A DNA stretch of 64,000 bases from Clostridia bacterium (GTDB lineage: Bacteria; Bacillota; Clostridia; Oscillospirales; CAG-272), in contig JAFQDF010000037.1 of assembly GCA_017416185.1 (NCBI GenBank), forward strand, positions 1 to 64,000, in the 5' to 3' direction. The notes under the pieces are model-generated. The model worked only from the letters and a program-made list of their open reading frames with translations. It was not told the DNA's origin and did not search any database. This document shows positions 3,315 to 50,335 of the stretch, piece after piece. The translations under genes were made by a program, and so were the position numbers. Every line of letters begins with the position of its first letter. The first letter of the stretch is position 1.

Positions 3315-4208
3315 ATGAACAAAGTTAAGATAATCACCGATTCCTGTTCGGATCTGTCAGAAGAGCTCTTGGCAAAATATGATATCGACTATTGCCGTAT
3401 GGCTACTTTTCTTGACGGAGTTGAGTCCCCTGCTCTGTTGAGCTGGAGTCAGAATGATGCTCACGAGCTGTACGAAACTATCCGATCGGGTAAGCGGGTA
3501 ACGACCTCACAGGTTCCCACCGAGGAATTTAAAAATGTTTTTACCAAGTATCTTGATTCAGGGTATGACGTAGTATATATCGGATGCTCCTCTAAACAGT
3601 CAGGCTCTGTAAACACAGGTAATCTGATCGCACAAAAGCTTATAAAGGAATATCCCGATGCACGTATACATTGCATTGATTCCTTAAACGCATCCCTCGG
3701 TGAGGGTATGCTTGCCATAGAAGCCGCAAGGCTGGCAAAAGAAGGCTTTGATGCCGACGAAATATGCGAGCGTATCACCGCAATATGCAACAACGTCCGT
3801 CAGTACGTAACCGTACATACCCTCGATCATCTCAAAAAGGCAGGCAGGGTATCGGCATCCTCGGCTTTCTTCGGTAATCTTATGGGAGTGAAACCGATAA
3901 TCACCTCTGACAAAAACGGTGTTCAGATACCCGTAAAGAAAGTCAAGGGCAGAAAAAACTCGTTTACCGAAATTGTAAAGCTGCTCAGAGAGGTAATACG
4001 CGAGCCTGAAAAACAAACGGTATACATAGCCCACGCTGACTGTCAAAAGGAAGAGGTCGAATACCTTAAAGAGCTTATTAAAAGTGAGATAAACTGCAAA
4101 GATATATACGTGGGGATCATAGGCCCCATCATAGGTGCATCCATAGGACCTGATGCCGTCGGAATATGGGGCTACGGTGAAGAGATAGATTTTGAGGGTG
4201 AACAATGA
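3315..4208 (+). CDS. DegV family fatty-acid-binding protein (FakB-like)
   Basis: MNKVKIITDSCSDL... has a typical DegV N-terminus. The ATG at 3315 has a GGAAGGGAG RBS at 8-nt spacing. The ORF-track start at 3276 lacks an RBS and would place the hairpin inside the CDS. Confidence 0.85.
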   Translation: MNKVKIITDSCSDLSEELLAKYDIDYCRMATFLDGVESPALLSWSQNDAHELYETIRSGKRVTTSQVPTEEFKNVFTKYLDSGYDVVYIGCSSKQSGSVNTGNLIAQKLIKEYPDARIHCIDSLNASLGEGMLAIEAARLAKEGFDADEICERITAICNNVRQYVTVHTLDHLKKAGRVSASSAFFGNLMGVKPIITSDKNGVQIPVKKVKGRKNSFTEIVKLLREVIREPEKQTVYIAHADCQKEEVEYLKELIKSEINCKDIYVGIIGPIIGASIGPDAVGIWGYGEEIDFEGEQ

Positions 4209-4825
4209 TAAAGGTATTATTATATGTTTCAGCCGCTTTATGCGCGTATCTTGTGTGCGGTATAAACCCTGCTATACTGATCTCAAAAAGAGTTTATCAT
4301 ACCGATATCCGAACCCTCGGCAGCGGCAATGCGGGCTTTACTAACTTCAAGCGCAGCATCGGCGGTATCTATAGTTGGGTGGTGCTGTTGTTCGATCTTT
4401 CAAAGGCGGCAGTTATAACGGCTATATTTGCAAGGCTATTTGAAATACATATCGGCAGCTATGACCTTGGGGCAATATATACCTGCTTCTTTGCAATGCT
4501 GGGACACTGTTTTCCCTGTTGGTACCGCTTCAAAGGAGGCAAAGGCTTTTTGGTATATATATCGGTAATATGGTTCGTTGACCCGCGTGCGGGAGCCGTA
4601 GCTCTTATTATAATGCTGTTACTGCTTATAACTACCCGTTATATGTCCCTGTCAACCGTTACGGCTATGCTCTCCTGCCCTATTACTCTGGCACTTATAA
4701 ACGCCGAAGCTCGGGTCATCGTCATATGTACACTATGCTCTCTTCTTATGACTGTAAGGCATAAGGATAATTTTGTAAGACTTATCAAGGGTACGGAAAA
4801 AAAGGTATCTCTCATTGATAAATAA
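4205..4825 (+). CDS. plsY: Second PlsY-family glycerol-3-phosphate acyltransferase paralog, translationally coupled to degV
   Basis: GSGNAGFTN motif and multi-TM. Its start overlaps the degV stop (ATGA). Confidence 0.75.
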   Translation: MIKVLLYVSAALCAYLVCGINPAILISKRVYHTDIRTLGSGNAGFTNFKRSIGGIYSWVVLLFDLSKAAVITAIFARLFEIHIGSYDLGAIYTCFFAMLGHCFPCWYRFKGGKGFLVYISVIWFVDPRAGAVALIIMLLLLITTRYMSLSTVTAMLSCPITLALINAEARVIVICTLCSLLMTVRHKDNFVRLIKGTEKKVSLIDK

Positions 4826-4858: not shown

Positions 4859-5370
4859 TATATTTCAGGTGCTATATATCCCTTTTCGGTAAGGGCGTTT
4901 TCAATATTATCAAGCGTTTGCCTGCTGTCTGCGGAAACTGTATGGTAGTGATATCCTCCGGTTATATTCATAAGCTCGGTGGATTTTCCGCTTCGTACAC
5001 CCTCCATAAAATTCTCTATGTCTTCTCTTGAGGCAATACTCAGAGGTGCTTCTATACGCCCATATACCTTATGCCATACGTAGACGTTCTCTACCCTGCC
5101 GCCGAAGGATACGATAACGGAAAGCTCATCCTCGGTCTGCTCCTTGGTATGGCGGAGCTTAAAGGTCTTTTTAACAAGCTCACTCACAGGCAAAAGATAT
5201 CCGCTATGGGTGGATCGTATATCATACCCCTCTGCCTTGAGAGCGGAAATATCGCTGACTACGATCTGACGCGAAACACCGAATTTATCGGCTAAAGCCG
5301 TGCCGTTAACAGCAGCTTCGCTTCCTCTCAAAGTGTCGATTATCGCTTTTCTTCTCTCGTCTGCTTTCAT
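4858..5370 (-). CDS. niaR: NiaR/YrxA-like transcriptional regulator (HTH_11 plus 3H domain)
   Basis: 170 aa with an N-terminal HTH (GTALADKFGVSRQIVVSDISAL) and a C-terminal His-rich 3H-like region (GGYHYHTV). Confidence 0.65.
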   Translation of the reverse strand: MKADERRKAIIDTLRGSEAAVNGTALADKFGVSRQIVVSDISALKAEGYDIRSTHSGYLLPVSELVKKTFKLRHTKEQTEDELSVIVSFGGRVENVYVWHKVYGRIEAPLSIASREDIENFMEGVRSGKSTELMNITGGYHYHTVSADSRQTLDNIENALTEKGYIAPEI

Positions 5371-5431
5371 TTCATCACCCCTTGTAATACTTTACCATAT
5401 TACAACGATAAAGTCAAGTGAATATAGGATA

Positions 5432-5460
5432 TTGCAAAATTTTGTCATATATTGTATAAT
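5432..5460 (+). promoter_or_regulatory. Sigma-A promoter (TTGCAA, 17-nt spacer, TATAAT) upstream of the WYL gene pair
   Basis: Hexamers read from the sequence, 60 nt upstream of the start codon. Confidence 0.45.
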
Positions 5461-5519
5461 AAGTACGGTTTTTGGGACAGTTGATTTTTATAATTAAATA
5501 TAACGAAAGGAGAATGGCT

Positions 5520-6770
5520 ATGGCATACAGCGAGCTTATAAAGAATTTTGAGAATATCCGTGATTATATGCGTGAGTTTTACGTTTACGGCTTCAAGAGC
5601 AGAAACGACTATACCGAAAAGAGCTCACGCTCATACGACGATGAGCGTCGGCGTATGGAAAGCTGGCTTGGGGAGCATATGAGCTTCGTACGTACTCCCG
5701 AGGGTAAAAACGTCTTTATATCTATTGACAGCCGTGTCACGGGACACAATCCGCTCTACAAGGCACTCAAGGCTAAAAGCTTTACCGACAAGGATATCAC
5801 CCTGCATTTTATACTTTTTGACCTACTTCATTCTCCCGAGATATCTCTTTCCCTTTCAGAAATAGTTAAGAATATAGACCGCCGTCTGTCCGAATTTGAC
5901 GAGCCTATGATATTTGACGAATCCACCGTCAGAAAAAAGCTGAAGGAATATACAGAGCAAGGACTGATAGTCACAGAAAAGGACGGCAGAAAAATACTAT
6001 ACAGACGCTCCCCTTCCGTTATGCCTATGGGAATAAGCGATGCTCTGCATTTCTTTTCCGAGGCTGCTCCCGTAGGTACAGTCGGCTCATTTCTGCTCGA
6101 CAAGCAGGGAGAGCATAGGGACAATTTCGGTTTTAAGCATCATTATATCACAAGCGCCCTTGACAGTGACGTTACCGCCAAGCTCTTTATGGCAATGCAC
6201 AAAAAGGCTATCGTATCCGTCTCAAATCATTCACGGTTTGCCCCTACCCCCACGATAAAAAGAATAATTCCCCTTCGTATTTTTATGAGTGTTCAGAACG
6301 GCAGACATCATCTGCTGGCATACGAGGCGGAGTATAATTCTATCAAGGCATTCCGTATTGATTATCTGTCTGACATAAAGATAGAGGAAACTACTCCCCG
6401 CTTTGACGAGCTGAGGGCAGCACTTGATACTATACAGACAAAAATGTGGGGAGTTACGGTAAGAAAGGGACTCTCTGTAGATCAAAATACGGAAAGAGTA
6501 GAGTTTACGGTACGCGTAGAGGATGACGAGGAGCATATAATAAGAAGGCTGCTTCGTGAAAAGCGTATAGGCCGTATAGAAAGACTTGATAAAAATAACT
6601 ACCGCTTTACTGCCGATGTTTACGACATAAGCGAAATGATCCCTTGGATACGTACCTTTATCTGCCGTATAACGAGTCTTGATTTTTCAAACAAGGTCCT
6701 TGAAAAGCAATTTCGGTCAGACATAAAAGAAATGTACCGTATCTACGGTATAGAGGAGGCGGAAATATGA
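5520..6770 (+). CDS. WYL-domain protein 1 (putative wHTH, WYL and C-terminal extension domains)
   Basis: The WYL-like core HHLLAYEAEYNSIKAFRIDYLSDIKIEE, a preceding winged-helix-like segment (DESTVRKKLKEYTEQGLIVTEKDGRKILYRR), and an unknown N-terminal ~120 aa. The ATG at 5520 has an AAAGGAG RBS at 7-nt spacing; the ORF-track start at 5472 is TTG. Confidence 0.6.
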   Translation: MAYSELIKNFENIRDYMREFYVYGFKSRNDYTEKSSRSYDDERRRMESWLGEHMSFVRTPEGKNVFISIDSRVTGHNPLYKALKAKSFTDKDITLHFILFDLLHSPEISLSLSEIVKNIDRRLSEFDEPMIFDESTVRKKLKEYTEQGLIVTEKDGRKILYRRSPSVMPMGISDALHFFSEAAPVGTVGSFLLDKQGEHRDNFGFKHHYITSALDSDVTAKLFMAMHKKAIVSVSNHSRFAPTPTIKRIIPLRIFMSVQNGRHHLLAYEAEYNSIKAFRIDYLSDIKIEETTPRFDELRAALDTIQTKMWGVTVRKGLSVDQNTERVEFTVRVEDDEEHIIRRLLREKRIGRIERLDKNNYRFTADVYDISEMIPWIRTFICRITSLDFSNKVLEKQFRSDIKEMYRIYGIEEAEI

Positions 6771-16949: not shown

Positions 16950-18212
16950 TTACTTTCTCTTCTTTGTAGCTACAAAGCCGATACCGGAGGTAGCAAGTGC
17001 ACCGAGTGCTATTGCAATACCAATATCAAATGTCTGAGCAGCGTTACCGCCTGTAGTGGTACCTGTAGTAGCCTTCTTGGTGGTAGCCTTAGCTGTAGCT
17101 TTACTTGTAGCCTTACTTGTAACCTTAACTGTAACCTTCTGTGTAACCTTGTTACCGGAAGCATCAGTTACTGCATTACCCTTGTCATCGGTAACCTCAA
17201 CAAATGCTGTCTCGGTTTCTGCAGAGGTGTTGTCATCACCGTCGGGAGTTGCTGTGGTTGTATCTTGGCCGCCCTCGTCACCGTTTGGAGCTGTAGTATC
17301 CTGGCCGCCCTCGGGAGCCTGGAGATAGAGGTTGATACCGCAGGAAAGAACGTTGTCACCGGAGGAACCATTACCGGACATACCAGTAGCAAGAGTGGTA
17401 GGACAGGTTACGAAACGGCCCCAAGTAGATCTCTCACCCGCCTCGGGATCGTCAAAACGGTCATGGTACATAGCGCCGAGTCTGATATACGCGTTTTCCT
17501 TAAGGAGGTCAGCCTTGTCTATAACACATTCGCCGAAAGTGATATCCTCAACGTCCTTGATGATGATATCCCACGGAATAGCTGCCTCGAAGTGCCAACC
17601 GTCTGTGGTCTTATGACCTGCAACCTTGACCTGATCGGTAATTTCGCCTTCGTTGATCTTGTTTCTGTACATCTTAGCAACGTCACCCTCAAAAAGACCT
17701 ATGAGATACCAGGGAGTGTAGTCCTGGTTACCGTTATATCCTGCGTCAAGCATTACGGACAGGGGGTCAATGATGATACCGAAAATATCACCGTCAAAAC
17801 CATAGTTATCAGCAGGATTATCAGGGTTAACGTCGATCCAGTCCTCACCCTCAGAATAAAGGAACTGGTTATAGCCTGCGGGGATAAGTTCGCCTGTGAT
17901 CTCGTGGTGTGTTTCAAGACCGTCAACGATCTTACCACAGTAGTAGAGATTGTCGTTATCCCAAGCAAATCTTACGTTACCGTCCATAGTAAGGGGATTA
18001 ACGTGCCAGTAGAAGCCGAGAGTATCATAGTTCATAAGAGCAGAAACAGACCAACCCTCGTTTTCATTGATAGTACCGTCAATGGTGGGAGACATAGCAG
18101 GTACGTTGATGGGGGGATTTTCAATAATTCCCTCAGCGCTTGCCATAACGTTTACCGCCATTGAAGACACGAGAATAAGTAATGTTGCAACGATTGCAAT
18201 GAATTTCTTCAT
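16950..18212 (-). CDS. Paralog D of the tandem surface-protein family
   Basis: Signal peptide MKKFIAIVATLLILVSSMAVNVMASA with an AGGAGG RBS. Its C-terminal tail is identical in type to paralog C. Confidence 0.75.
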   Translation of the reverse strand: MKKFIAIVATLLILVSSMAVNVMASAEGIIENPPINVPAMSPTIDGTINENEGWSVSALMNYDTLGFYWHVNPLTMDGNVRFAWDNDNLYYCGKIVDGLETHHEITGELIPAGYNQFLYSEGEDWIDVNPDNPADNYGFDGDIFGIIIDPLSVMLDAGYNGNQDYTPWYLIGLFEGDVAKMYRNKINEGEITDQVKVAGHKTTDGWHFEAAIPWDIIIKDVEDITFGECVIDKADLLKENAYIRLGAMYHDRFDDPEAGERSTWGRFVTCPTTLATGMSGNGSSGDNVLSCGINLYLQAPEGGQDTTAPNGDEGGQDTTTATPDGDDNTSAETETAFVEVTDDKGNAVTDASGNKVTQKVTVKVTSKATSKATAKATTKKATTGTTTGGNAAQTFDIGIAIALGALATSGIGFVATKKRK

Positions 18213-47229: not shown

Positions 47230-49692
47230 ATGCCATCTAAAAAGAAAACGACTAAAAAAGTATACAAAAAATCGACTTCAAAAACCGCAGCAAAGAAAAG
47301 CTCTGCCAAGAAATCCGAGCTTTCCTCTCTGCATTATATAATGCCCTGGGTACTGGGACTTGCCGCGGTATTTATGGCCATCTGTCTCTATTTTACCGAG
47401 TATTCGGGATTTATAGGTAAATGGCTCCACGGTCTCTGCCTCGGTCTCTTCGGAGGTGCGGGATATATGACCCCCTTCGTGCTTGCGGTCATAGCCTTCT
47501 TCTGGAAGACAGACGCAAAGAATTATTATATCGGGAAGCGTATAGCTTTTGCCGCAACCATTACTGTATCGGTTGCCGCTTTTATCCATTCATTCAGCAA
47601 GCTGACAGCCGTATTCAATATGGTAGACCTCTGGAAAGAAGGAGTTGAGCTTCACGGCGGCGGTGCAGTAGGCGGTTTCGTCGGAAGCTGTCTTAAGGCT
47701 GCTATCGGTAAACCGGGACTTATTATACTGACTCTGCTCTTAATGATAGTTTTCACCATATTCTTCATCGGCTTTACCCCTGCTATGATAGGCTCTTATC
47801 TTTCTAACTACTTTACCGTAAAAAAGAAGAAAAAAGACGAGTTCAAAAAGGAAAGGGCAAAGGAGCTCCACACGCACAAGCCCGAGGCCTATCTTCCCGA
47901 CGAAGATGATTATGATACACCCGAGCGAGCTCTTGACGTGGACGTACCTATCGACGATACCCCCAAGGTTGACCCCGAGATATTTGAACGTATCAAGAGT
48001 GAAATAAATCAGGCAAACGAATCTCGCGAGCCTAAGTTCAAAAAGGACGAAAAGCCCTATACCGGCGAGCAGGTAAACTTAGACGAGGTATATCTTGACG
48101 AGGACGAGCAGGAGCTTATCAAGAAGGCGGCTCAATCAGCCGAATTAGAGGTAGAGAGAAAGCCTGTTGAAGAACCAAAGACGGAAGAAGAAAAGCCTGT
48201 AAAGAAGGAAAAGCCAAAGTATATCTTCCCTCCCATCTCTCTGCTCACTCAGGCACAGAAGCCTCAGAACGAGGATATCACCGAGGAGCTTCGCACCAAT
48301 GCAAACAAGCTGGTAGAGACTCTTGCAAGCTTTAAGGTGCGTACCAAAATAATTGATATTTCCAGAGGTCCCGCTATCACCAGATACGAGCTTCAGCCCG
48401 AGGAGGGTGTAAGAGTCCGTCAGATAGCCAACCTCGTTGACGATATTGCCCTTAATCTTGCCACCAGCGGTATACGTATCGAAGCACCTATACCCGGTAA
48501 AGCCGCGGTAGGTATCGAGGTTCCCAACAAGACGAGAACCGTGGTAGGACTGCGGGAACAGCTTGAAGCACCTACCTTTAAGGAAGCCAAAAGCCGTCTT
48601 ACCGCTTCGCTCGGTGTTGACGTGGCTGGTGAGCCTATATATATGGATATAGCCAAAATGCCCCACCTCCTCGTTGCAGGTGCTACGGGTCAGGGTAAAT
48701 CGGTATGTATCAATTCCATCATCGTCAGTATGCTCTACAAGGCGACCCCCGACGAGGTCAAGTTCATCCTTATAGACCCAAAGAAGGTCGAGTTCGTTCC
48801 CTACAACAGACTTCCCCACCTTCTCGTTCCCGTGGTTACCGACCCCAAGAAGGCTGCCGGCTCGCTGCAGTGGGCTGTAGGTGAAATGGAAAGACGTTAT
48901 CAGCTTATGGAAACCCTTGGAGTTCGTGACATCTATAACTTCAATATGAAGACCAAGGATGATCCCACCTACGAATATATTCCTCAGGTAGTTATCATCA
49001 TTGACGAGTTGGCTGACCTTATGATGACAGCCCCCGATCAGGTAGAGGATTCTATCTGCCGTCTTGCTCAGAAGGCAAGAGCCGCAGGTATGCACCTCAT
49101 TCTCGGTACACAGCGTCCTTCGGTTGACGTTGTAACAGGCCTTATCAAGGCTAACATTCCTTCAAGAATCTCCTGTAAGACTACAAGTCAGGTGGACAGC
49201 CGTACCATACTTGATATGGCAGGTGCAGAAAAGCTTATCGGACGCGGTGATATGCTCTATGCTCCCGTAGGTGCTCCCAAGCCTATGCGTGTACAGGGTT
49301 CCTTCGTCCACGAGGATGACGTTGCCAAGGTAACCGACTTCATCCGCTCAAAGGTAGGCGAGAGCGAATACGACGAGTCTGTTATAGAAAAAATAGAACA
49401 GGAAGCCGCGAAATGCGGAGTCAAGAAGGGCTCCTCTATGTCCGCCGGTGATATTGATGATGACGAAGACGGCGACCCTATGCTCAAACAGGCAATCGAG
49501 CTTGCCGTAACGTCCGGTAAGATATCCACCTCCCTTATCCAGCGTAAGCTCTCTCTCGGATACGGCAGAGCCGCCAAGCTTATAGATACTATGGAAAAGA
49601 TGGGTATCGTAGGCGCTCCTGAAGGAAACAAACCCAGAGAAGTTCTTATGAGCGAGGCAGAATATCACGAAATGACAATGCGTCAGGAATAA
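47230..49692 (+). CDS. ftsK: DNA translocase FtsK
   Basis: N-terminal TM helices, a long linker, Walker A (GATGQGKSVCINSII), and a C-terminal gamma wHTH domain. Confidence 0.9.
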   Translation: MPSKKKTTKKVYKKSTSKTAAKKSSAKKSELSSLHYIMPWVLGLAAVFMAICLYFTEYSGFIGKWLHGLCLGLFGGAGYMTPFVLAVIAFFWKTDAKNYYIGKRIAFAATITVSVAAFIHSFSKLTAVFNMVDLWKEGVELHGGGAVGGFVGSCLKAAIGKPGLIILTLLLMIVFTIFFIGFTPAMIGSYLSNYFTVKKKKKDEFKKERAKELHTHKPEAYLPDEDDYDTPERALDVDVPIDDTPKVDPEIFERIKSEINQANESREPKFKKDEKPYTGEQVNLDEVYLDEDEQELIKKAAQSAELEVERKPVEEPKTEEEKPVKKEKPKYIFPPISLLTQAQKPQNEDITEELRTNANKLVETLASFKVRTKIIDISRGPAITRYELQPEEGVRVRQIANLVDDIALNLATSGIRIEAPIPGKAAVGIEVPNKTRTVVGLREQLEAPTFKEAKSRLTASLGVDVAGEPIYMDIAKMPHLLVAGATGQGKSVCINSIIVSMLYKATPDEVKFILIDPKKVEFVPYNRLPHLLVPVVTDPKKAAGSLQWAVGEMERRYQLMETLGVRDIYNFNMKTKDDPTYEYIPQVVIIIDELADLMMTAPDQVEDSICRLAQKARAAGMHLILGTQRPSVDVVTGLIKANIPSRISCKTTSQVDSRTILDMAGAEKLIGRGDMLYAPVGAPKPMRVQGSFVHEDDVAKVTDFIRSKVGESEYDESVIEKIEQEAAKCGVKKGSSMSAGDIDDDEDGDPMLKQAIELAVTSGKISTSLIQRKLSLGYGRAAKLIDTMEKMGIVGAPEGNKPREVLMSEAEYHEMTMRQE

Positions 49693-49696
49693 ATAT

Positions 49697-49780
49697 ATGA
49701 ATTGACAACTGCGTTGTCATGAATTGATGCGTTGCATCATGAATTGACACACCGTGTCATTAATTGTATCCTTCGGATAC
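49697..49780 (+). repeat. Array of four ~21-bp units, each ATGAATTG followed by a different short perfect hairpin
   Basis: Hairpin units TGACAAC-TGC-GTTGTCA, TGATGC-GTT-GCATCA, TGACAC-ACC-GTGTCA and GTATCC-TTC-GGATAC, each preceded by (C)ATGAATTG or TTAATTG. Confidence 0.7.
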
Positions 49781-49837
49781 ATTAAGGAAACTTTTTGCTT
49801 ATGGCAAAAAGCAATTCCATCAATATAGAGGTTTGTT

Positions 49838-50194
49838 ATGAAGGAAAATATATTGGTAATCTTGTCGAAACAGTTTTCTGTAGACATAATAAATGTATGT
49901 TCTCATATTGATACCTTTAAAAATGGAAACTTATTGGCAAATCAGCTTCTTCGCAGCGGTACAAGCATCGGTGCTAATATTCATGAGGGAAATTATGCAC
50001 AAAGTCGAGCCGACTTCATCTCAAAGTTTCAGGTCGCACTGAAAGAATGTTATGAAACCGAGTATTGGTTAGATATATTTCATACTGCCGGAATAATAAC
50101 CGAAGATGATTACAACAAGCTGTATAATCAATGCTGTAAAATACGAAGAACTCTGGCAGCTTCCCTAAACACCGCAAAAGCCAATTCAAATTAA
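49838..50194 (+). CDS. Four-helix-bundle protein of the 23S rRNA intervening-sequence-protein family type (TIGR02436/PF05635-like)
   Basis: 118 aa, alpha-helical, with the family-typical GTSIGANIHEGN ... KFQVALKECYETEYWLDI segments. Confidence 0.6.
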   Translation: MKENILVILSKQFSVDIINVCSHIDTFKNGNLLANQLLRSGTSIGANIHEGNYAQSRADFISKFQVALKECYETEYWLDIFHTAGIITEDDYNKLYNQCCKIRRTLAASLNTAKANSN

Positions 50195-50198
50195 ATTG

Positions 50199-50307
50199 AT
50201 TTTCGCCATAGCGAAAATCCACCTTAATGTGCTTTGGCACAATTCATGACGCTTGCCGTCAATTCATGGCATAGCCAATTCATGAAAGCCAACGGCTTTC
50301 AATTCAT
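50199..50307 (+). repeat. A 9-bp-stem hairpin (GATTTTCGC-CATA-GCGAAAATC), then an array of four hairpin units each followed by CAATTCATG. This is the inverted counterpart of the upstream array.
   Basis: Units GTGC-TTTG-GCAC, GACG-CTTGC-CGTC, GGC-ATA-GCC and AAAGCC-AAC-GGCTTT, each followed by (C)AATTCAT(G). Confidence 0.7.
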
Positions 50308-50335
50308 CATTTTCTACGAAGGAGAAAATATAGTT

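Follow-up and report, generated by a model that had tools for sequence, protein, structure and literature searches.

An insertion cassette carrying a PF05635 gene between inverted hairpin arrays, and its relation to the Gut-1 motif

Proteins of the PF05635 family, described in the literature as functionally uncharacterized, are encoded in several genomic settings. The intervening sequence (IVS) of the Coxiella 23S rRNA gene is described as selfish: its ends are inverted repeats, its loop contains an S23p open reading frame (ORF) preceded by heptamer repeats, and RNase III cleaves it (PMC4990558); Xcc0516, cited in the same paper, is a homopentameric toroid. PF05635 genes have also been reported in rRNA insertions of the candidate phyla radiation and inside cas loci (PMC3936711), and diversity-generating retroelement loci encode a homologous protein, Avd (PMC10053308). 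The structured motif Gut-1 (RF01706) was introduced by Weinberg et al. 2010 (PMC2864571), whose passages on it class it as a certain RNA, structured on covariation grounds, found in human gut only and not cis-regulatory; these passages describe a three-hairpin orphan small RNA (sRNA) without mention of a second arm or of mobility, and the note on the motif records occurrence only. Here, we analyzed a 64-kb stretch of DNA from a Clostridia bacterium (contig JAFQDF010000037.1, positions 1 to 64,000; hereafter the window, to whose positions all cassette coordinates refer), in which a PF05635 gene lies between two inverted arrays of short linkers and hairpins (the arms) in the spacer between ftsK and a DJ-1 gene. 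Both neighboring genes were confirmed. The element is 611 bp long, and its first linker, ATGAATTG, begins at 49697, five bases after the ftsK stop codon (49690–49692). Its parts are as follows.

49697–50307, plus strand: the inserted cassette in full, from left arm through gene to right arm, delimited by empty sites and junction alignment
49697–49787, plus strand: left arm of four linker-plus-hairpin units, from sequence, minimum-energy fold, and substitutions relative to locus L121
49697 (ATGAATTG), 49718–49726 and 49738–49746 (CATGAATTG), 49758–49766 (CATTAATTG), plus strand: left-arm linkers
49703–49719, 49725–49739, 49745–49759, 49765–49781, plus strand: left-arm perfect hairpins of 15–17 nt
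49780–49787, plus strand: degenerate fifth left-arm linker, CATTAAGG, from sequence
49792–49818, plus strand: inner hairpin TTTTTGC-TTATG-GCAAAAA followed by CAATTCC, a degenerate unit of the opposite type (hairpin, then linker complement)
49827–49831, plus strand: ribosome-binding site AGAGG, 6 nt 5′ of the ATG, from sequence
49838–50194, plus strand: PF05635/TIGR02436 four-helix-bundle gene (118 aa), with profile scores above the cut-offs
50193–50219, plus strand: degenerate plus-type unit, from sequence, in which AAATTG overlaps the gene's stop codon and is followed by a hairpin with a 9-bp stem (50198–50219, GATTTTCGC-CATA-GCGAAAATC; terminator-like score on the minus strand)
50222–50307, plus strand: right arm, CCTTAATG followed by four hairpin-plus-linker-complement units, from sequence, inverted-repeat pairs, and fold
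50228–50241, 50247–50261, 50267–50277, 50283–50301, plus strand: right-arm hairpins
50240, 50260, 50276 (CAATTCATG) and 50300–50307 (CAATTCAT), plus strand: right-arm linkers after the hairpins
50310–50330, plus strand, outside the element: native hairpin ATTTTCT-ACGAAGG-AGAAAAT, in which the DJ-1 ribosome-binding site lies

The four left-arm stems are all distinct (ACAAC/GTTGT, ATGC/GCAT, ACAC/GTGT, and TATCC/GGATA); each is lengthened by the TG...CA of its flanking linkers, leaving a 5-nt TGAAT spacer between hairpins. Linker spacing varies from 16 to 24 bp. The right arm is supported by the inverted-repeat pairs I1, I2, I7, I12, and I16–I18, and its CCTTAATG (50222–50229) is the complement of left-arm positions 49780–49787. 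Re-reading the sequence thus reproduced exactly the order given by the first-pass annotation, namely four linker–hairpin units, the gene, and four inverse units at 49697–50307. Of 12 linker matches in the window with at most one mismatch, eight lie inside the 611 bp, four in plus and then four in minus orientation and in mirror order; chance predicts about 17.6 matches over the whole window and hence about 0.17 in 611 bp. The inner unit at 49792–49818, directly before the gene, fits the layout common among relatives, in which a minus-type arm stands immediately 5′ of the gene. Since one degenerate inner unit is present on each side of the gene (49792–49818 and 50193–50219), the sequence looks like an element–gene–element arrangement whose inner arms have shrunk. 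A promoter scan of the cassette gave one TTGACA-17-TATCCT match, in the left arm, and a total not above that in shuffled sequences. The repeat-array detector returned one other match in the 64-kb window, three copies of GTAGCCT with 13–40-nt spacing at 17068–17114, which we counted as a false positive and which is probably coding or due to chance.

Comparison with relatives (loci numbered with an L) bore on the origin of this arrangement. The same cassette occupies the same junction in L120 and L121, whose proteins are 99% and 88% identical to that of the window, respectively. Conversely, four syntenic outgroup genomes (L122–L125), with the gene order BacA–FtsK–DJ-1–5-FTHF ligase–Rce1-like–YceG and DJ-1 proteins 89, 84, 81, and 70% identical to the window's, are free of the cassette, and their ftsK–DJ-1 spacers measure only 9–36 bp. 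The empty junction of L122 reads TAATAACT/ATTTTCCGAAGGAGAAAAT (the slash marks the junction), whereas the occupied junction of L121 reads TAACA, then ATGAATTG...CAATTCAT, then ATTTTCGACGAAGGAGAAAAT; aligning the two places the ends of the insert exactly at the outer linkers ATGAATTG and CAATTCAT. The target-site duplication that would be expected of a miniature inverted-repeat transposable element (MITE) is absent: relative to the empty sites no bases are duplicated, at a resolution of about 2 nt given the divergence of the spacer. The window and L121 are sisters (86% nucleotide identity) relative to the empty L122 (83%) and L123 (80%), so that a single gain, in the ancestor of the window lineage and L121, explains the pattern. 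Together, the occupied and empty junctions bear out the earlier proposal of an inserted unit and indicate that the 611 bp are one insertion cassette, placed in sense orientation in a short operon spacer. The cassette sits 2 nt upstream of the native DJ-1 hairpin, which L122 likewise has at its empty site (ATTTTCCGAAGGAGAAAAT). In this 7-bp hairpin at 50310–50330, the DJ-1 ribosome-binding site GAAGGAG is sequestered; its conservation in L122 suggests translational control or coupling of DJ-1 that is independent of the cassette.

The substitution pattern was examined between the window and L121. The PF05635 gene has a ratio of nonsynonymous to synonymous substitutions (dN/dS) of 0.06 at a dS of 1.06, comparable to the neighboring DJ-1 (0.08, dS 0.94) and FtsK (0.05, dS 0.47) genes. 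The arm regions differ at 12 of 141 (left) and 5 of 114 (right) positions, that is, 17/255 or about 7%; hairpin loops account for about half of the changes and stems for only two, each of which leaves a G·T-type wobble on one strand. A gene-free orthologous element is 96.4% identical between L060 and L097, with 65–82% identity in the adjacent rplM/rpsI DNA. These values indicate that the gene, the cassette arms, and a gene-free copy are kept by purifying selection and, because of the low dN/dS, the ~7% arm difference, and the 96.4% identity of the gene-free ortholog, that they are not decaying relics; as judged from its substitutions, the PF05635 gene of the cassette is functional.

The encoded protein scores 88.4 bits against PF05635 (cut-off 33.8) and 101.8 bits against TIGR02436 (cut-off 24). 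Its closest solved relative is Protein Data Bank entry 2RLD (E = 2e-24), a structure with five chains. In the family motif GxxRxxxSxxxNxxE (PMC3936711), R39, S43, N47, and E50 are present and the leading G is replaced by Q36. The family is large, with more than 7,900 homologs at E ≤ 0.001 among the candidates scored. A phage or defense origin of the protein was considered and rejected: the PHROG search gave zero matches, and the PADLOC match was spurious (E = 0.012). Among viral contigs, no more than 30 contained the linker pattern, most of them as chance matches, and no more than two the protein. The densest occurrence of the elements, three full two-armed copies in 5 kb, was seen at 235–4765 of L129, a 5128-bp IMG/VR contig classed as viral; it may represent the edge of a prophage or a piece of bacterial DNA that was misclassified. 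In the viral contig L137, twelve CATGAATTG-like matches at 5345–5569 represent a coding tandem repeat (HELHGL...) and are a false positive of the DNA pattern.

We next asked whether gene and arms occur together elsewhere, using 80 metagenome loci fetched by the window protein alone (53–68% identity; gene calls are crude ORF calls). A linker–hairpin array was found within 400 nt of the gene in 74 of them, and most of the six array-negative loci still contained at least four copies of a linker. Array density was 1.98 per kb near the gene versus 0.106 per kb more than 800 nt away. In all 22 clusters the linker tracked the protein clade, the types being TGAATT, TGATTT, TGAAAT, TGAAG[CT], and TGATAT. 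In the converse search, tblastn with the window protein against 119 loci selected by pattern, the gene abutted arrays in seven loci and lay between arms in L039. About 12 loci bracket the gene as in the window or in the opposite polarity. These results indicate that the gene and the arms constitute a linked module at the level of genome sequence. A third associated gene, such as a transposase or reverse transcriptase, was also sought, and clustering of neighboring ORFs over 87 loci gave only syntenic host genes.

The arms proved to be related to Gut-1, whose consensus consists of three hairpins separated by GUGAAAU. Arms of the CATGAATTG type scored 25–28 bits against RF01706, below the gathering threshold of 50 bits, and arrays with GTGAAAT linkers scored 50–76 bits. 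True Gut-1 matches in this range lay just upstream of homologs of the window gene in 10 of 20 loci scanned, and two loci gave an additional opposite-strand score for the right arm. Moreover, the flanks of the raw Gut-1 alignment of Weinberg et al. show an inverted second arm, with, for example, AAUAUCAC linkers after GUGAUAUU linkers. Scores and flanks thus indicate that the arm family includes Gut-1 and that RF01706 models one arm. Within the window itself, Rfam found no Gut-1 match either at E ≤ 10 or at gathering score; at the latter, zero families were detected in the 64 kb (no tRNA, rRNA, or riboswitch), and a known RNA family was rejected as an explanation since neither setting gave anything relevant. 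Many modules of Gut-1 and gene were observed directly downstream of tRNA clusters and terminators (L195, 2059–2290; L190, L193, L201, L218, L222, L225, and L234); mobile DNA classically inserts near tRNA clusters. L195 and L209 contain a tandem series of Gut-1-type elements at 3442–4248, some 600 bp 3′ of the gene for the four-helix bundle; the series has four to five copies, each complete with both arms, and includes a duplication of about 505 bp.

The arms are also widely dispersed without the gene. A pattern scan with CATGAATTG-N9-17-CATGAATTG, one genome per species, found at least 119 loci. Among the matches listed, to which the counts in this paragraph refer, the hosts were mostly rumen and gut Clostridia metagenome-assembled genomes (MAGs; Oscillospiraceae, Acutalibacteraceae, Christensenellales), and the elements, 38 compact pairs and 78 solo arms, were scattered through intergenic regions of all kinds. 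Usually an element is gene-free and about 160 bp long, composed of about four linker–hairpin units, a short center, and about four hairpin–linker-complement units; one arm per element is closed, in that its tip linker and first half-stem are complementary to the center. Hairpins were counted by anchoring on the linkers and not from a covariance model, because a MAFFT alignment of CATGAATTG arms slipped by whole units. In 318 inter-linker hairpins, 35 of 1279 stem pairs (2.7%) were non-Watson–Crick, and shuffled segments almost never paired. Stem sequences vary within and between copies, and some hairpins recur by position; the window's first hairpin, GACAAC..GTTGTC, reappears in L020, L049, L069, and L114. 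Two points raised in the first-pass annotation, dispersal like that of MITEs or repetitive extragenic palindromes (REPs) and conservation of structure without conservation of sequence, thus agree with what is found in related genomes (at least 119 loci; 97% Watson–Crick pairs in differing stems). Mismatches gave no indication of strand or RNA, since G·U and A·C pairs (16 versus 7) were too few to decide. We also rejected kissing loops formed by partner hairpins across the arms, as 3% of partner loops were complementary versus 9% in shuffled partners.

Two arrangements of elements stood out. In L105 (691–3859), four arms of the same orientation occupy consecutive spacers of a four-gene minus-strand cluster, one per spacer, a spacing like that of a cassette array. 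In nine rumen MAG loci (L047, L118, L092, L110, L022, L157–L159, and L173), an element follows an rlmD/rumA-like methyltransferase gene (C-terminus VDMFP..HVE); this ORF runs via a hairpin into the first linker, and the element provides its final codons and stop.

Folding predictions were made for the window cassette. With DNA parameters, each arm folds into exactly four hairpins with 5-nt linkers (z = −3.7 to −5.0; 0/200 shuffles as good). The fold of the whole region has z = −8.7. The arms are complementary via four or five linkers of 8–9 nt, and the predicted minimum-energy structure pairs them, with competing local hairpins and without a continuous long duplex. Pairing between the two arrays, which had been put forward as a structure-prediction check, was favored in silico over local hairpins alone with both parameter sets (RNA, −73.8 versus −51.4 kcal/mol; DNA, −46.0 versus −38.1 kcal/mol).

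To see how far this architecture extends, we inspected 13 distant homologs (25–47% identity) from annotated plasmids and chromids of Nostoc, Dolichospermum, Planktothrix, Gloeocapsa, Euhalothece, Pseudanabaena, Chlorohelix, Bernardetia, Chondrinema, Treponema, and Monoglobus. In 12 of the 13 loci, a tandem heptamer array lies upstream of the gene and its reverse complement downstream, and such bracketing arrays were found in cyanobacteria, Bacteroidota, Spirochaetes, and Chloroflexota. The heptamer pairs include GGAAGTC/GACTTCC, TAATTCG/CGAATTA, TTAGTGA/TCACTAA, and GATTTTA/TAAAATC; nine loci contain exact inverted matches of 12–16 nt, as compared with about 0.002 expected per locus. Eleven of the 13 genes are co-directional with their neighbors. 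Heptamer type tracks protein clade even across phyla (Planktothrix, Gloeocapsa, Chlorohelix), yet proteins 80% identical can have unrelated heptamers. The latter weakens a strict sequence-specific co-evolution of protein and repeat and suggests that the conserved property is the complementarity of the two flanks, with no fixed sequence. The coordinates, within their loci, of distant PF05635 genes that lie co-directionally inside annotated operons are as follows.

L238, 1501–1842
L242, 1474–1833
L244, 1429–1827
L246, 1462–1818
L247 and L249, 1474–1842
L248, 1480–1848

These genes are wedged between operon neighbors, several of the operons being defense operons: hsdS and hsdR of a type I restriction–modification system (Monoglobus), DISARM drmD and MmeI (Planktothrix), DUF1156 and Swt1-HEPN (Gloeocapsa, Chlorohelix), csx2 and cas1 (Pseudanabaena), a resistance–nodulation–division adaptor and permease (Chondrinema), and, with other genes between, a helicase and a methyltransferase (Dolichospermum). 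In L242 (Planktothrix), runs of the heptamers CCCCAAT and GATTTAC and of their complements flank the gene at about 1250–1470 and 1835–2010. CCCCAAT is the classic heptamer of the cyanobacterial short tandemly repeated repetitive (STRR) sequences. Genome-wide cyanobacterial heptamer arrays may be related to PF05635 cassettes.

Taking these observations together, we think that the cassette is probably a form that IVS-like PF05635 insertion cassettes take in Clostridia. In the working that we propose, it would insert without an accompanying transposase or target duplication, neither of which was seen, at ends that often abut a pre-existing hairpin, and it would be transcribed together with the host operon; ftsK and DJ-1 are very likely co-transcribed, because the empty-site spacer is only 9–36 bp. 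The arms would fold as hairpin arrays whose complementary 8–9-nt linkers zip them into a rod, with the gene held as a loop. Such a rod could insulate the flanking host RNA and, by analogy with RNase III and the 23S IVS, might offer a cleavage site for a double-strand-specific RNase. The unique-stem hairpins between the repeated linkers may keep the array in register and stop the replication slippage that plain heptamer arrays invite. The protein, a probable pentameric ring in view of the five chains of 2RLD and the Xcc0516 toroid, probably binds the linker-and-stem-base units, of which each arm presents four hairpins and five linkers, and this binding could control its own expression, processing, or spread.

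Several of our results weigh against this proposal, chiefly against its RNA form. With RNA parameters the arms fold less cleanly (z = −1.4 to −3.4), and the inter-arm rod consists of 8–9-bp rungs broken by four-way junctions, which is not a classical RNase III substrate. Among the loops, C(GNA)G triloops read on the center-to-tip strand of each arm predominate; C(GNA)G and GNNA loops make up 90/186 triloops and 58/109 tetraloops on this strand, with 4 and 1 on the other. In the commonest Clostridial layout, an arm and an inverted arm are followed after 13–54 nt by the gene, so both arms are upstream and do not bracket it. In TGAAAT-type loci, a canonical extended −10 promoter (TGnTATAAT), its −35 overlapping the last linker, lies between element and gene, and the arms are therefore probably absent from the gene's mRNA. 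Many elements directly follow intrinsic terminators, and gene-free arms show no orientation bias relative to neighboring genes, both of which are easier to reconcile with an element acting as DNA than with one acting as a transcript; among the matches listed, the bias that would indicate a strand-specific transcript function of these arms was sought and not found. Finally, near-duplicates from the same species are common among the 80 homolog loci, which therefore represent about 20 independent contexts. On the evidence of the non-bracketing layout, promoter position, terminator adjacency, absent orientation bias, and loop bias, a DNA-level step in mobility is likely. An outright single-stranded DNA mobile element of the REP/RAYT or IS200/IS605 type, in which extruded arm hairpins are recognized by a recombinase encoded elsewhere and the four-helix-bundle protein is an accessory, would go further; the cassette would be its gene-carrying form and the compact elements non-autonomous copies. 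Besides the loop bias toward each tip (C(GNA)G and GNNA loops form the most stable DNA mini-hairpins) and the missing host-gene orientation bias, this explanation accommodates the two-fold symmetry of the arms, the DNA-parameter folds that reproduce the exact design, the insertion without target duplication, the empty-site polymorphism, and the arm tips, which abut a perfect hairpin or terminator in 35/140 cases versus about 9/140 at control offsets, a fourfold difference. We nonetheless consider it unlikely: a transposase, Y1/HUH or otherwise, turned up in none of the roughly 200 fetched loci, orthologous copies are conserved beyond ribosomal-protein genes and synonymous sites, which a mobility-only signal does not predict, and the heptamer arrays beside the distant homologs are plain, lacking hairpins.

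The conservation of the arms with and without the gene would suit a domesticated regulatory module, in which the protein is a repeat-binding regulator or RNA chaperone and the Gut-1-type arrays are operators, decoys, or sRNA partners. Consistent with this, arrays in TGAAAT-type loci stand directly upstream of the canonical promoter whose −35 overlaps the last linker, linker type tracks protein clade, and Gut-1 is classed as structured RNA by Rfam and, in the passages on it, by Weinberg et al. 2010 on the basis of covariation. Such a module, however, would not be expected to lack a positional or orientation preference relative to neighboring genes or to differ in presence among close relatives; unrelated heptamers beside 80%-identical proteins argue against fixed sequence-specific recognition, and the variable 16–24-bp linker spacing is awkward for cooperative binding to double-stranded DNA. 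We rate this explanation as somewhat more doubtful still. A type III toxin–antitoxin-like pair, with repeat-array RNA neutralizing the small protein encoded just downstream, would account for the array directly upstream of the small gene in most relatives and for a module that persists under selection. Its probability appears very small, as the protein belongs to PF05635 and is not an endoribonuclease of the ToxN/AbiQ type, with only the spurious PADLOC match noted above, and the units differ in sequence, form two inverted arms, and widely occur without the gene.

The gene family, the rRNA IVSs, and the Gut-1 motif were already known; the link between Gut-1 and PF05635 and the inverted-array rule appear to be new. 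Our literature search found no report of Gut-1 as one arm of a two-armed element, of its physical linkage to PF05635 genes, or of the gene-plus-arms unit as an insertion cassette, and none of inverted heptamer arrays bracketing PF05635 genes in other phyla, a result that does not by itself prove novelty. Gut-1 has been in Rfam since 2010, with no function or gene association found, and its link with PF05635 gives each a testable partner. Self-contained cassettes with complementary arms that make insertion tolerable may explain why PF05635 genes are found wedged in rRNA genes, cas loci, and restriction or defense operons. The flanking arrays might also contribute to reports of a linkage between "23S rRNA IVP" proteins and CRISPR arrays, as listed in PMC10910872. 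As a design principle, interleaving a repeated short motif with unique hairpins brings the motifs next to each other in the folded strand while blocking slippage. More tentatively, and with less confidence than in the Clostridial case, we suggest that PF05635 genes across phyla could be the coding core of one widespread class of small cassettes bounded by inverted short-repeat arrays. This class would include the 23S IVS ORFs, operon-wedged genes (restriction–modification, DISARM, BREX-like, cas), and the Clostridial genes; the Gut-1 "RNA" would be a gene-free derivative, possibly along with cyanobacterial heptamer arrays, and a pentameric ring protein would recognize the array and govern processing or spread.

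Compared with known dispersed repeats, the elements resemble REPs and bacterial interspersed mosaic elements with their REP-associated tyrosine transposases (RAYTs; REPINs) in being short structured palindromic intergenic units that occur in inverted pairs, with one associated gene flanked by repeats. They differ in that this gene encodes a 118-aa helical bundle and not an IS200-like Y1 (HUH) transposase, and in that each unit of the window type has its own stem, the linker alone being shared. MITEs differ in two respects, since the present elements have no target-site duplication and, in the roughly 200 fetched loci, no transposase-encoding autonomous relative. Avd is a pentamer that acts on structured nucleic acid encoded beside its own gene. 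It shares the homologous small four-helix-bundle fold (PMC10053308), whereas no reverse transcriptase, template repeat, or variable repeat lies near the window gene or its relatives. Cyanobacterial STRR-type arrays are a further parallel: inverted heptamer arrays on either side of PF05635 genes in Planktothrix, Nostoc, Dolichospermum, and others have the same role as the arms but consist of plain contiguous heptamers, with no hairpins between them. Gut-1 shares with the window arms the GC-rich hairpins in tandem, with a conserved UGAA-containing linker between them; the window has four hairpins per arm with 5-nt single-stranded spacers, and Gut-1 likewise occurs in gut Clostridia-type sequences, with representatives that carry the inverted second arm. 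Its linker is GUGAAAU as opposed to CAUGAAUUG in the window, whose arms fall below the Rfam threshold.

The 23S rRNA IVS of Leptospira and Coxiella (PMC4990558) is similar in several respects, having a protein of the same family in the loop, mutually complementary ends, a sense orientation in the host transcript, short tandem repeats before the ORF, and a reputation as a selfish element. The initial analogy with IVSs therefore stands at the level of the gene family, which is bracketed in four other phyla and whose Coxiella member lies inside inverted repeats; it does not extend to the arms, which are Gut-1-type repeats and not rRNA helices. Nothing points to the suggested origin as an IVS transposed from a 23S rRNA gene, and the 64-kb window is without rRNA. 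The cassette lies between ftsK and DJ-1, outside any rRNA gene, and its ends are hairpin arrays with complementary 8–9-nt linkers, whereas the IVS has a continuous 28-bp stem. Furthermore, the Coxiella IVS ORF is decaying, whereas the ORF in the window has a good ribosome-binding site and bears the marks of strong purifying selection.

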